Shown: positions 46,108 through 64,000 of the stretch, one piece after another
Layout of the letters: each line of letters begins with the position of its first letter
Position numbering within the stretch: position 1 is the first letter of the stretch
NCBI RefSeq assembly: GCF_053078305.1
Contig: NZ_CP166879.1
Reading direction: 5' to 3' (one strand)
DNA: 64,000 nucleotides
Notes under the pieces: generated by a model
The model's database searches: none
What the model was told of the DNA's origin: nothing
What the model saw: only the letters and a program-made list of their open reading frames with translations
Program-made: the position numbers and the translations under genes

Positions 46108-48186
46108 TTAAATCAATGCCGATTTATCAATTCCCAGTCGCTTCATCCGTGACAGCAGGGTCGTGCGTTTCAGCCCCAGACGTTGCGCAGCGCCTTTAGG
46201 CCCGGCAACCACGCCGTTAGTTTCTTTCAGCACGCGAACAATCAACTGATATTCATCTTCGCCCTCCTGAGCGACAACCGTTGCGGCAGGCGGCGTTTCA
46301 GGTTCCGGTAAAGCAATATCTGGCAATGACAGCTGCAGCACGTTGCCGCGTGTTAGCAATACTGCGCGCTCAATGACGTTTTCCAGTTCGCGTACGTTAC
46401 CCGGCCACTCCATGTTGCTCAAGGTGCGCAGCGTCTCGGCAGGAATGCTGTCGATATTGCGCCCCAGACGACGGGCAATTTTGAAGGTAAAGGCTTTCGC
46501 CAGCAGCGGAATATCTTCCGGACGCTCGCGTAGTGGCGGAAGGTGAATCGGAAATACGTTCAGGCGGTAATAGAGATCGCTACGGAACTCTCGGTCGGCG
46601 ACCATTTTTTTCAGATCGCGGTTAGTCGCGGCGATTAGACGCACGTCCGTCTGAATGATTTTGTTGCTGCCGAGGCGTTCAAACTCCTGTTCCTGCAATA
46701 CACGCAGCAACTTCGGCTGTAACTCCAGTGGCATATCGCCCACTTCGTCGAGGAACAGGGAGCTTTTATCCGCCAGTTCAAAACGACCGATACGCTGGGC
46801 GCTGGCACCGGTAAAAGCCCCACGCTCATGACCAAACAGATCGCTCTCCAGCAATCCGGCAGGCATCGCCGCGCAGTTCATTTTGACCATGCGGCGATTA
46901 TTACGCCCACTGAGATTATGGATAGCACGGGCAATCAGCTCTTTACCCGTGCCAGTTTCACCGAGGATCAGCACGGTACTGTCACTTTGCGCCACCATTT
47001 CAACTTGTTTAAGCACGCTGTACATGGCTTCGCTGCGGCCAATAATCTCGCCAAATTCACTATCAACATTGTTGAGCTGCTCGGTCAGGGCGAGGTTTTC
47101 ATCAACCAGCCGTTCTTTCAGACGATGGATTTCCTGATAGGCGAGGGCGTTATCGACAGCGATTGCCACACGTTCGGCAATCTGGCGCAGTAAATTCAGA
47201 TTGGTAGTGGTAAACACTTTCTCTTCACATTGCGCCAGTTTCAGCACGCCCAGCATGGTGTCGCCAGACATCAGCGGTAACAGGCACAAGGTTTGAATCT
47301 GGTTGCCCCAGGTATCGAACAACATGCGTTCATAGGGGGCTAAATCATCCCGCTCGTGGAGATTAATCAGCAGCATCTCTTTACTTTTGAACACGCGTTC
47401 GGTGAGGGTTCCGGCTTCATCGACTTCGCTCTGTTCGTGGGCGGGATGCTGTTTATCAAGATAGTGAGTGGAGTAGATGTTGAGTTTGTTTTTACGGTGG
47501 CTGCGTAAGACAATGCTGATATCGTCAATGTCGAAATAGTAATGGATTTCTTTGGCGACTTCGCTGACCAGTTCGTCCATATCCAGGCGGGAAAGCACCG
47601 CGTTGGTGATGGCGACCAGGATGCGGAAGTTATCGCGTTCCCGGCATAACAACTCATAGTCGACATTGTTAACGACGCGACTCTGGATTTGTTCGGTGAC
47701 GACAGAAACGATTTGCGTAAATGTTTGCAGACGATTGAACTCTTTTTCGCTCCAGGGGCGATCGTCATAACGAATAAATTCACAGCCACCAAAAATATGC
47801 CCTTCCGCCGCCAGTGGCATCAGGCAATAGTGACCAAATTTTGGGTATAGCCCACCTGCGGCCAGCTGCGGCCAGGTTTCACAAAATTCTTCGTAACTGC
47901 AATGCAGCGTATCAGGGCGCGACAAAATGCTGCGTACCGGACCGTGTGCCAGAACAGTTTCGTCTTCATATTTAATGGGGGTGTCTTTTTCACGCGATGC
48001 GTAATAAGACGCACGTTGAGTCTGCGCTTGCCACAACACAATAGCCGCGTTGTCGGCGAGCGCAGAACGCTTTACCAGTTGCGAAAGAGCCTCACACAGC
48101 GAGGCCAGATCGGGCTGCTGCAATAGTGTCCGAGTGATGTCGAACAACCCTTGCTGTCCGAGATCACTCATCGGTGTATATGACAT
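46108..48186 (-). CDS. fhlA: Formate hydrogenlyase transcriptional activator (sigma-54 enhancer-binding protein)
   Basis: 692 aa from MSYTPMSDLGQQG...; AAA+ sigma-54 activation domain (GETGTGKE, GAFTGA) and C-terminal HTH. Confidence 0.95.
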   Translation of the reverse strand: MSYTPMSDLGQQGLFDITRTLLQQPDLASLCEALSQLVKRSALADNAAIVLWQAQTQRASYYASREKDTPIKYEDETVLAHGPVRSILSRPDTLHCSYEEFCETWPQLAAGGLYPKFGHYCLMPLAAEGHIFGGCEFIRYDDRPWSEKEFNRLQTFTQIVSVVTEQIQSRVVNNVDYELLCRERDNFRILVAITNAVLSRLDMDELVSEVAKEIHYYFDIDDISIVLRSHRKNKLNIYSTHYLDKQHPAHEQSEVDEAGTLTERVFKSKEMLLINLHERDDLAPYERMLFDTWGNQIQTLCLLPLMSGDTMLGVLKLAQCEEKVFTTTNLNLLRQIAERVAIAVDNALAYQEIHRLKERLVDENLALTEQLNNVDSEFGEIIGRSEAMYSVLKQVEMVAQSDSTVLILGETGTGKELIARAIHNLSGRNNRRMVKMNCAAMPAGLLESDLFGHERGAFTGASAQRIGRFELADKSSLFLDEVGDMPLELQPKLLRVLQEQEFERLGSNKIIQTDVRLIAATNRDLKKMVADREFRSDLYYRLNVFPIHLPPLRERPEDIPLLAKAFTFKIARRLGRNIDSIPAETLRTLSNMEWPGNVRELENVIERAVLLTRGNVLQLSLPDIALPEPETPPAATVVAQEGEDEYQLIVRVLKETNGVVAGPKGAAQRLGLKRTTLLSRMKRLGIDKSALI

Positions 48187-48259
48187 TTTGTTCTTCCAGG
48201 AAAGCACCGCAAAGCGGTGCAAAAGGTCATTGACTAACTATAGGAGATTTAGAATTTTA

Positions 48260-50660: not shown

Positions 50661-51523
50661 CGCTGTGTCTCCAGCCAGTTCAGCCACTGGTCCATCCCTT
50701 CGCCGCTGGTGGCGGAAATAAGGATGATTTCAATTTCTGGATTGACTTCGCGGGCGCAGGCGATGCACTTCTCAACGTCAAAGTTGAGATACGGCAACAG
50801 GTCAACTTTGTTGAGCAGCATCAGCGAGGCGGCGGCAAACATATGCGGATATTTCAGCGGTTTGTCTTCACCTTCGGTAACGGAAAGCACCGCCACTTTG
50901 TGTTTTTCACCGAGATCGAAGCTGGCCGGGCATACGAGGTTGCCAACGTTTTCGATAAACAGAATACCGTTATCGTCCAGTGGCAGGCGCGGTGCGGCGT
51001 CAGCAATCATCTGTGCGTCAAGATGGCAGCCTTTACCGGTATTCACCTGAATCGCTGGTGTGCCGGTAGCGCGAATGCGTGCGGCATCGTTCACGGTTTG
51101 CTGATCGCCTTCAATAACCGCGCACGGAACGCTGTCTTTCAGGCGCATTAAGGTTTCCGTCAGCAGGGTGGTTTTACCGGAACCAGGGCTGGAAACCAGG
51201 TTGAGCACCAGTTGCTTGCGGGCAGCAAAGCGCGCGCGGTTGCGTTCAGCCAGACGGTTGTTTTTGTCCAGCACGTCAATTTCGACTTCCAGCATCCGGC
51301 GCTGGCTCATGCCCGGTGCGTGAGTGCCCGCTTCGCCATGACCGTAATGCAGGTCGCCTTCTTCAGTCTGGCTGGGGGTAAATTCAGGCGCTTTAATGCC
51401 GGTGATTTTCATCTTCGGGCGTGCCGCCGGGGCAAATGGCGCGCTACGAAACGCGGAATGAGGGTTATGTTCATCACCCTCGATATACAGGTTGCCTTCA
51501 CCGCAACCGCATGTTGTACACAT
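50651..51523 (-). CDS. hypB: Hydrogenase nickel-incorporation GTPase HypB
   Basis: 290-aa ORF; His/Cys-rich N-terminus; P-loop GSGKTT. Confidence 0.95.
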
Positions 51524-51526
51524 CGC

Positions 51527-51877
51527 TCACTCCTGGTCTATTTCTATCCGCCGAATCTGTAAACCGTCGTCTGCCACAATCTGTAGCATGTCACCATGAC
51601 ACTGTGGACAGCGGCGGACGCGCTGGGTCAGTAGCGTCACATACTGTTGGCATGTTTCACACCAGCATTCGGCCTCTTGTTCTTCGAGGTGCAGTTTACA
51701 ACCTTCCGCCACGCTGCCGCGGCAAACCAGATCAAAACAAAAGGCAAGAGAGCTGGTTTCGACACAAGAAAATGCGCCAATTTTGAGCCAGACCCCAGTT
51801 ACGCGTTTTGCGCCGTGTTTTGCGGCCTGCTGTTCGATCAATTCCAGTGCCCGTTGGCAGAGGGTTATTTCGTGCAT
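51527..51877 (-). CDS. hypA: Hydrogenase nickel-incorporation protein HypA
   Basis: 116 aa from MHEITLCQRALELIE...; C-terminal CxxC...CxxC zinc site. Confidence 0.95.
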   Translation of the reverse strand: MHEITLCQRALELIEQQAAKHGAKRVTGVWLKIGAFSCVETSSLAFCFDLVCRGSVAEGCKLHLEEQEAECWCETCQQYVTLLTQRVRRCPQCHGDMLQIVADDGLQIRRIEIDQE

Positions 51878-51918
51878 ATCGCCTCCCATTAACTATTGCC
51901 AGCTACAAGCAATAATTG

Positions 51919-51933
51919 TGCCAGTGTTGATTA
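51919..51933 (-). promoter_or_regulatory. Sigma-54 (-24/-12) promoter for the hyp operon
   Basis: The bottom strand reads TGGCACAATTATTGC (TGGCAC-N5-TTGC), about 30 bp upstream of the hypA start. Confidence 0.6.
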
Positions 51934-52036
51934 TCCCTGCAGTGAATAATGTCGATGATGTCGAAATGACACGTCGACACGGCGACGAAATTCACCAAAA
52001 TCTTAAAAATCGCTTTAATAACAATAAATTAAAAGT

Positions 52037-52051
52037 TGGCACAAAAAATGC
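52037..52051 (+). promoter_or_regulatory. Sigma-54 (-24/-12) promoter for the hyc operon
   Basis: TGGCACAAAAAATGC with GG/GC spacing as in the sigma-54 consensus, about 38 bp upstream of the hycA start. Confidence 0.55.
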
Positions 52052-52088
52052 TTAAAGCTGGCATCTCTGTTAAACGGGTAACCTGACA

Positions 52089-52550
52089 ATGACTATTTGG
52101 GAAATAAGCGAGAAAGCCGATTACATCGCACAGCGGCATCGTCGCCTACAGGACCAGTGGCACATCTACTGCAATTCGCTGGTTCAGGGGATCACGTTAT
52201 CGAAAGCTCGCCTGCATCACGCCATGAGCTGCGCGCCGGACAAAGAACTCTGTTTCGTCCTTTTTGAACATTTTCGTATTTACGTCACCCTGGCGGATGG
52301 CTTTAACAGCCACACCATCGAGTATTACGTCGAAACAAAAGATGGCGAAGACAAACAGCGGATTGCGCAGGCACAACTGAGCATTGACGGCATGATTGAT
52401 GGCAAGGTCAACATCCGCGATCGCGAACAGGTTCTGGAACACTATCTCGAAAAAATCGCTGGCGTTTACGACAGCTTATACACCGCTATTGAAAACAATG
52501 TGCCGGTGAATTTAAGCCAACTGGTAAAGGGACAAAGCCCGGCAGCATGA
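52089..52550 (+). CDS. hycA: Formate hydrogenlyase regulatory protein HycA
   Basis: 153-aa ORF, first gene of the hyc operon. Confidence 0.9.
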   Translation: MTIWEISEKADYIAQRHRRLQDQWHIYCNSLVQGITLSKARLHHAMSCAPDKELCFVLFEHFRIYVTLADGFNSHTIEYYVETKDGEDKQRIAQAQLSIDGMIDGKVNIRDREQVLEHYLEKIAGVYDSLYTAIENNVPVNLSQLVKGQSPAA

Positions 52551-52674
52551 GCTGAGGCTTTGCCCGTTTTGCAGGCGTTACGCCTGTTTGGGGATGGGCG
52601 TGTCGATGAGTGTCGAAAATGACATTTCATCGGCATGTTTTCGTCAAAAATGACAATCACCTGAGGAATGCCTG

Positions 52675-63250: not shown

Positions 63251-64000
63251 ATGAAAATGATGACGACGATGCTGGAAGTGGCGAAGCGCGCCGGGGTTTC
63301 AAAAGCGACCGTTTCCCGCGTGCTTTCAGGTAATGGCTACGTCAGCCAGGAGACTAAAGATCGCGTGTTTCAGGCGGTAGAAGAGAGCGGTTACCGTCCA
63401 AACTTGCTGGCGCGCAATCTGTCGGCGAAGAGTACTCAGACGCTGGGGCTGGTAGTGACCAACACGCTTTACCACGGCATTTATTTTAGTGAATTACTGT
63501 TTCATGCCGCGCGAATGGCGGAAGAGAAAGGGCGGCAGTTGCTATTGGCAGATGGTAAACACAGCGCCGAAGAAGAGCGCCAGGCGATTCAGTATCTGCT
63601 GGATTTGCGCTGCGACGCCATTATGATTTACCCGCGTTTTTTAAGCGTGGATGAGATCGATGACATTATTGACGCGCACAGTCAGCCGATAATGGTGCTT
63701 AATCGCCGCCTGCGCAAAAATAGCAGCCATAGCGTCTGGTGCGATCATAAACAGACCAGCTTTAACGCCGTGGCAGAGTTGATAAACGCCGGGCATCAGG
63801 AGATTGCTTTCCTTACCGGCTCGATGGATTCCCCCACCAGCGTTGAACGTCTTGCCGGGTATAAAGACGCGCTGGCGCAGCATGGTATTGCGCTCAATGA
63901 AAAACTTATCGCTAACGGTAAATGGACGCCCGCCAGCGGGGCCGAAGGGGTAGAAACGTTGCTCGAACGTGGGGCTAAATTTAGCGCGTTAGTTGCCAGT
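63251..64000 (+). CDS. ascG: LacI-family repressor of the asc operon (3' end truncated by window)
   Basis: N-terminal HTH (TMLEVAKRAGVSKATVSRVLSG) followed by a periplasmic-binding-protein-like domain; runs to the window end without a stop. Confidence 0.9.
   Translation, partial: MKMMTTMLEVAKRAGVSKATVSRVLSGNGYVSQETKDRVFQAVEESGYRPNLLARNLSAKSTQTLGLVVTNTLYHGIYFSELLFHAARMAEEKGRQLLLADGKHSAEEERQAIQYLLDLRCDAIMIYPRFLSVDEIDDIIDAHSQPIMVLNRRLRKNSSHSVWCDHKQTSFNAVAELINAGHQEIAFLTGSMDSPTSVERLAGYKDALAQHGIALNEKLIANGKWTPASGAEGVETLLERGAKFSALVAS

Follow-up and report, generated by a model that had tools for sequence, protein, structure and literature searches.

The best-described relative of the locus analysed here is the divergent hycA/hypA promoter pair of Escherichia coli K-12, which is transcribed by RNA polymerase carrying sigma-54 (RpoN). 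The hyc and hyp sigma-54 promoters are said to have been described originally by Lutz and co-workers in 1990. In a sigma-54 ChIP-seq study of cells grown in M9 minimal medium with no formate induction, both sites were occupied (Bonocora et al. 2015, PMC4591121). Table 1 of that study lists OS27 (TTGGCACAAAAAATGCT, hycA) with an occupancy score of 91 and OS28 (CTGGCACAATTATTGCT, hypA) with a score of 201, the top of its 50 intergenic peaks; it flags both with a 'C', for experimentally confirmed in EcoCyc, and tabulates K-12 leaders of 26 nt (hycA) and 20 nt (hypA). The hycA/hypA spacer was also recovered in vitro by genomic SELEX with reconstituted holoenzyme (Shimada et al. 2021, PMC8743547). 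Neither hycA nor hypA is mentioned anywhere in the supplements of Cho et al. 2014.

Salmonella Typhimurium LT2 carries the orthologous divergent pair in the same architecture. Sigma-54 holoenzyme binds the orthologous sites TGGCATGGAAAATGCTTA (hycA) and TGGCATAAATATTGCTTT (hypA), expression of the operons is sigma-54-dependent (26-fold for hyc, 5.6-fold for hyp), and FhlA is named as the activator (Samuels et al. 2013, PMC3844500, who cite Lutz et al.). Two other members of the formate regulon, fdhF and hydN-hypF, likewise have a sigma-54 element with clusters of TGTCG/TGACA-type repeats ~60-110 bp upstream, but these are single promoters rather than a divergent pair, and no second downstream enhancer was seen at either. 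A more distant parallel is provided by zraP/zraSR (OS38 and OS39 in Table 1 of Bonocora et al., PMC4591121), where two sigma-54 promoters also stand back to back, there ~150 bp apart, and where one promoter also expresses its own activator, ZraR. In that system, however, the activator is ZraR and the signal is zinc, and nothing corresponds to the anti-activator HycA or a remote second enhancer.

Compared with these systems, the locus under study has the genes, orientation, 211 bp spacer, 17-mer promoter elements, enhancer core, IHF-like site and leaders of K-12, from which it differs only by seven substitutions in the spacer. It departs from Salmonella LT2 in having TGGCAC instead of TGGCAT at -24 and a promoter centre-to-centre distance of 128 rather than 126 bp.

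Genomic context of the hypA-hycA spacer

The window, by which we mean the whole 64,000-nucleotide stretch of DNA that was analysed, is E. coli chromosome: of 5426 complete E. coli genomes, 5425 contain a match to the segment 51400-52600, which their annotation assigns to hypB, hypA and hycA. The hypA-hycA region is entirely missing from one of the 5426 genomes, and one copy in this genome collection sits on a record typed as plasmid. We identified fhlA, hypA and hycA by NCBIfam equivalog or subfamily models (Table 1). The HypA match spans positions 1-116 of 116, HycA, the regulator that counteracts FhlA, matches its equivalog model with 301 bits, and FhlA matches its own with 1548 bits against a cut-off of 830, residues 13-704 covering profile positions 1-692 of 692. 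The gene of the cognate activator is present and intact within the same window as both promoters.

Using the annotated hypA start (ATG 51877..51875), the spacer between hypA and hycA extends from 51878 to 52088 and is 211 bp long. A preliminary description of this DNA had placed its left edge at 51890, because the open reading frame list began hypA at an upstream in-frame ATG (51887-51889, minus strand); the K-12 annotation and the HypA profile, which covers 1-116 of 116, move the edge to 51878. The upstream ATG (51889) overlaps the hypA ribosome-binding site CCTCCC (51882-51887).

Both promoter elements are base-for-base identical to those of K-12 MG1655, as are the central repeats of the enhancer core, the AT-rich tract with the IHF-like site, and both leaders. 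The seven substitutions that distinguish the spacer from MG1655, one at 51941 and six within 51995-52012, all fall outside recognised elements. In most E. coli genomes the identity of the spacer to the window is 95-99%, with 451 records at 90-95%, whereas a longer stretch that takes in the flanking genes reaches 99% identity or more in most of them.

Table 1. Genes, promoter elements and candidate regulatory features around the hypA-hycA spacer (positions in the window)
Feature	Position	Strand	Remarks
fhlA	46108..48186	-	formate-sensing sigma-54 activator, end of the hyp transcription unit; ORF 46108-48222
hypA (116 aa)	51527..51877	-	first gene of hypABCDE-fhlA; ORF list, K-12 annotation, NCBIfam
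hypA ribosome-binding site GGGAGG	51887-51882	-	
Predicted hyp transcription start	51897	-	motif geometry; 20-nt leader to hypA ATG
P_hyp sigma-54 -24/-12 element CTGGCACAATTATTGCT	51908..51924	-	GG 51922-51921, GC 51910-51909
UAS-A, candidate FhlA enhancer core TGTCGATGATGTCGAAATGACACGTCGACA	51950..51979	.	repeats, conservation, TGWCR cluster, FhlA matrix
Variable spacer	51995..52012	.	between enhancer and IHF-like site; length kept, sequence free
IHF-like site TAACAATAAATTA	52019..52031	+	one mismatch to WATCAANNNNTTR; ends 5 nt before hyc TGGCAC
P_hyc sigma-54 -24/-12 element TTGGCACAAAAAATGCT	52036..52052	+	GG 52038-52039, GC 52050-52051
Predicted hyc transcription start and 26-nt hycA leader	52063..52088	+	motif geometry
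hycA (153 aa)	52089..52550	+	first gene of hycABCDEFGHI; ORF list, K-12 annotation, NCBIfam
Third sigma-54-like element GTGGCACATCTACTGCA	52157-52173	+	inside hycA; 15.6 bits, rank 3 in window
UAS-B, candidate second FhlA enhancer	52601..52655	.	hycA-hycB spacer; TGTCGATGAGTGTCGAAAATGACA (52601-52624) and CGTCAAAAATGACA (52642-52655)

Two sigma-54 elements face hypA and hycA

The preliminary description had noted matches to the -24/-12 consensus on both strands of the spacer, and these are indeed present. The hyp 15-mer, TGGCACAATTATTGC, lies at 51923..51909 on the minus strand and points towards hypA, while the hyc 15-mer, TGGCACAAAAAATGC, lies at 52037..52051 on the plus strand and points towards hycA. 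In both elements the GG and GC doublets are exactly 10 bp apart. Only the hyp site matches TGGCAC-N5-TTGC exactly, against 0.34 such matches expected in the whole window, and the hyc site carries one mismatch, an A for T before the GC, so that its -12 region reads ATGC, not TTGC. With one mismatch allowed, the pattern occurs seven times in the window against 7.33 expected; since this is no more than the chance frequency, a string match alone is little proof.

Because consensus matching is weak evidence, we built a sigma-54 weight matrix of 17 columns from the 48 other intergenic ChIP-seq motifs in Table 1 of Bonocora et al. 2015, omitting the hyc and hyp entries, and scanned both strands of the 64 kb window (~128,000 positions). 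P_hyp ranked first with 20.6 bits and P_hyc second with 17.6 bits. When the window was shuffled by a first-order Markov model, 0.005 sites per 64 kb reached the score of the former and 0.14 that of the latter. Both sites lie inside the single 211-bp spacer, each directed at its own gene. These results confirm that the pair of sigma-54 motifs is real and far above chance.

To predict the transcription starts we set the C of the GC doublet to -12 and counted 12 nt beyond it, the convention also used in Table 1 of Bonocora et al. By this geometry transcription would start at 51897 (hyp) and 52063 (hyc), each in the correct orientation and a short distance from its gene. The leaders so predicted, 20 nt for hypA and 26 nt for hycA, agree with those tabulated for K-12.

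The two promoters are also related to each other as a 27-nt inverted repeat with 81% complementarity (51897-51923 and 52037-52063), which spans -26 to the predicted +1; beyond the -12 GC they share 10 of 12 bases (...GCTTnnAGCTGGCA). We dropped this repeat as a functional unit: the portion past -12 is common only to Escherichia, including E. albertii, and absent in other genera, and we therefore treated it as a lineage-specific extension.

The matrix scan also returned an element inside hycA, between UAS-A and UAS-B (Table 1). Its score is about that of the typical best chance match in 64 kb (15.9 bits). The element overlaps Trp-His-Ile-Tyr-Cys codons, among which those for Trp, Tyr and Cys account for most of its conservation; in orthologues its score ranges from 7 to 18.7 bits, and both TGC and TGT, the two Cys codons, occur at its -12 position. 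The published sigma-54 ChIP-seq lists contain no separate site at 52157-52173, where a weak peak could not be told apart from the strong hyc peak at a distance of 120 bp. We consider it unlikely that this element is a third FhlA-dependent start, giving a hycB-I message without intact hycA; if it were, hydrogenase 3 subunits would be made while the anti-activator HycA is bypassed.

Conservation of the promoter pair across Enterobacteriaceae

Orthologous loci were collected by a HycA scan, taking one genome per species, which gave 80 loci (81 when the window is added) from Escherichia, Salmonella, Citrobacter, Enterobacter, Klebsiella, Kluyvera, Raoultella, Lelliottia, Kosakonia, Pseudescherichia and other genera. 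In all 80, hypA is divergent from hycA across a spacer of 188-223 bp and a sigma-54 site is found on each strand in the same orientation. The hyp site scores at least 16.4 bits throughout (median 17.6), and the hyc site at least 13.0 bits (median 16.0). Leader lengths are similarly constrained among the 81 loci, at 24-27 nt for hyc and 18-24 nt for hyp with a single exception of 32. In an alignment of 15 genera, TGGCA and TGC(T/A) of both promoters, including the -24 GG and the -12 GC, are invariant; the intervening bases vary. The conservation of both sites agrees with the supplementary conservation table of Bonocora et al. (PMC4591121).

Measured centre to centre, the promoter spacing forms a few classes: 128-130 bp at 58 of the 81 loci, 126 bp at one, 116-117 bp at 19 and 106 bp at three. 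The conserved enhancer core is separated from the hyp -24 region by 37-39 or 49-50 bp, and from the hyc -24 region by 75-76, 64-67 or 53 bp. These steps of about one or two helical turns are suggestive of helical phasing and would fit a need for the bound proteins to lie on the same helix face; they are only suggestive, because just three or four independent insertion/deletion events (~12 and 23 bp) underlie the spacing classes.

The 26-nt hycA leader, ATCTCTGTTAAACGGGTAACCTGACA, is also strongly conserved across genera, to a degree nearly equal to that of the promoter core. It has no obvious strong Shine-Dalgarno sequence, and Rfam returned no credible RNA family.

Candidate FhlA enhancers UAS-A and UAS-B

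The preliminary description had suggested locating the FhlA sites between the two promoters. One candidate enhancer, UAS-A, does lie there, but a second and equally good one, UAS-B, lies downstream of hycA. UAS-A consists of two direct TGTCGA repeats 9 bp apart, followed by AAATGACA and an inverted TCGACA, with weaker palindromic arms extending to 51942-51995. It is centred at about -67 from the predicted hyp start and -98 from the predicted hyc start, and its core is the most conserved block of the spacer after the promoters. The motif TGWCR or its complement occurs four times at UAS-A against 0.37 expected per 56 nt, a count that is reached by 0.1% of 56-nt windows. The window-wide peak of TGWCR density is not in the hypA-hycA spacer but at ~52596-52657, between hycA and hycB, which is where UAS-B lies. 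Relative to the predicted starts, UAS-B is ~716 bp upstream for hyp and ~550 bp downstream for hyc.

Since a MAFFT alignment of four FhlA-controlled upstream regions mis-registered the repeats, we used a gapped pattern search and a matrix scan instead. The gapped pattern, drawn post hoc from both copies, matches only UAS-A and UAS-B in the 64 kb, both on the plus strand. The FhlA matrix (14 columns) was made from 13 characterised sites (PMC7658346, Table 2). In the whole window it ranks 52611-52624 first (16.7 bits), 51950-51963 second (15.3 bits) and 52642-52655 fourth (12.3 bits), a ranking that is partly circular, because the 13 source sites probably include these E. coli sites. Among orthologues, UAS-B is recognisable in 78 of 81 hycA-hycB spacers, though the length of that spacer varies from 67 to 146 nt, and the median of the best FhlA-matrix score is 10.8 bits in one orthologous spacer and 10.7 bits in the other, compared with a background median of 6.5 and a 95th percentile of 10.1.

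Taken together, these observations point to two FhlA-type enhancers within looping distance of the promoters, UAS-A between them and UAS-B downstream of hycA. Schlensog, Lutz and Bock reportedly footprinted FhlA at both places in 1994 and assigned the hycA-hycB site to hyp. On that assignment, UAS-A would presumably serve hyc and UAS-B hyp.

A 16-mer FhlA consensus, CATTTCGTACGAAATG, has also been proposed (Leonhartsberger et al. 2000, quoted in the review PMC4987338). It has no match with three or fewer mismatches in the window, and we dropped it as an FhlA detector, as its best agreement upstream of hyc-hyp, fdhF and hydN is 9 of 16 positions. Its half-site CGAAATG is found at 51962 and 51986.

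Towards the right end of the window, at 63252-63674, there is also a group of several moderately high FhlA-matrix matches (11.3-13.0 bits), among them the palindrome CGTCAATAATGTCA/TGACATTATTGACG at 63661-63674. The K-12 gene order would place this region in the spacer between ascF and ascG and the first part of ascG. The cluster is probably unrelated to FhlA.

An IHF-like site beside P_hyc and a variable patch

The AT-rich tract before P_hyc holds a near match to the IHF consensus (Table 1). Such one-mismatch matches occur 50 times in the window against 48.7 expected, that is, at chance level. In 27 of the 81 loci, though, a perfect IHF match stands at the same 5-6 nt offset, and in a further 30 a match with one mismatch falls within the 45 nt that precede the hyc TGGCA, while no match in the hyp-sense orientation was found in any of the 81. 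An AT-rich block (...AACAGTAAATTAAAAACTGGCA) resembling the one before P_hyc is also present at hydN. IhfAB is listed as an activator of both hyc and hyp (PMC2636881). The match at 52019-52031 may be an IHF site that would bend UAS-A towards P_hyc.

The patch at 51995-52012 is hypervariable. It has the six K-12 differences in 18 nt, with both flanks identical, and it contains the least conserved columns of the orthologue alignment.

Discussion

We are highly confident that the spacer contains the two divergent sigma-54 promoters that belong to the formate regulon of E. coli, with P_hyp driving hypABCDE-fhlA leftwards and P_hyc driving hycABCDEFGHI rightwards. The preliminary description had proposed just such a pair under FhlA and formate control, and the proposal is supported by the identity with K-12 and by the published ChIP-seq, SELEX and Salmonella dependence data. 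Sigma-54 occupancy, and the dependence of the promoters on sigma-54, FhlA and formate, are taken from the literature.

In the mechanism that we envisage, sigma-54 RNA polymerase would sit on each -24/-12 element as a stable, inactive closed complex, and FhlA would bind the arrays of TGTCGA/TGACA-type repeats at UAS-A and at its near-copy UAS-B. As formate builds up in fermentation, formate-bound FhlA would hydrolyse ATP and, acting through a DNA loop, open the promoters, with an IHF-induced bend beside the hyc -24 element probably assisting loop formation; transcription is expected to begin near the two predicted starts. Transcription from P_hyp would continue into fhlA, a positive feedback, whereas P_hyc would transcribe hycA first, a negative feedback. 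The two feedbacks would be coupled, because one promoter yields the activator and the other its antagonist.

Three other readings were weighed. That both matches are chance likenesses to the sigma-54 consensus, without promoter action, has a negligible probability in our view: the one-mismatch 15-mer pattern is no commoner in the window than in shuffles (7 versus 7.33) and hycA contains a third match of similar quality (52157-52173), but an independent matrix ranks these two sites 1 and 2 where 0.005 and 0.14 would be expected per 64 kb, both face their own genes from one spacer, their key bases are invariant in 15 genera with sites at 80 of 80 loci, and sigma-54 occupancy has been published (PMC4591121). 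It is also distinctly improbable that sigma-54 binds here mostly unproductively, as at many of the sites of Bonocora et al., and that hypA and hycA are expressed chiefly from sigma-70 promoters. Bonocora et al. (PMC4591121) do stress that binding is not the same as productive transcription, but their Table 1 marks both of these promoters as EcoCyc-confirmed, and in Salmonella the sigma-54 dependence amounts to 26-fold for hyc and 5.6-fold for hyp (PMC3844500). The hyp operon is positively regulated by FNR (PMC3149613) and an FNR ChIP-seq peak lies at the hypA start, yet the study reporting that peak found no sigma-70 peak here and remarked on the sigma-N site (Myers et al. 2013, PMC3688515). 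Within the spacer itself, sigma-70 promoters and terminators occur at chance level only; the two weak sigma-70-like matches on its plus strand compare with 1.2 expected, and there is none on the hypA strand.

The remaining reading accepts the sigma-54 promoters as real and makes their main activator here one other than FhlA, for example its paralogue HyfR or NtrC, which we judge very improbable. HyfR and FhlA reportedly cross-activate hyf, according to Skibinski and co-workers in 2002, and we counted this in its favour. Induction of hypA under nitrogen limitation, and the discussion of more than one activator by Bonocora et al. (PMC4591121), speak for it as well, but the conserved repeats fit the FhlA matrix and are similar to the sequences upstream of hydN and fdhF, and fhlA is intact in the window. 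Each of these three readings is contradicted by cited data, and we retain that of a divergent, FhlA-activated pair of sigma-54 promoters.

This promoter pair is already known. The preliminary description had labelled it expected biology, and the label was apt: the promoters are EcoCyc-confirmed and textbook, and the finding is correct and ordinary. Its value is that of a calibration point, not a discovery, with two textbook promoters recognised from the letters alone and then confirmed at single-base resolution. What is added is the detail that the promoter pair, the candidate enhancer core and the candidate second enhancer between hycA and hycB are kept across at least 15 enterobacterial genera; the conservation and the spacing classes do not alter what is accepted about control by formate and FhlA.

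The FNR ChIP-seq summit of Myers et al. 2013 (PMC3688515), at K-12 position 2,848,688, is assigned there to hyc with the remark 'TSS not in peak region, sigma-N site'. The corresponding position in the window is ~51858, inside hypA and 19 nt from its start. Searching 51500-52014 for TTGAT-N4-ATCAA with up to three mismatches gave no match, which led us to reject a canonical FNR box as the source of the peak near 51858; the sole match, TTAATAACAATAAA, lies at 52015 in the AT-rich tract. The FNR peak may reflect indirect capture at what is the strongest sigma-54 site in the intergenic table of Bonocora et al., or a non-canonical FNR site.
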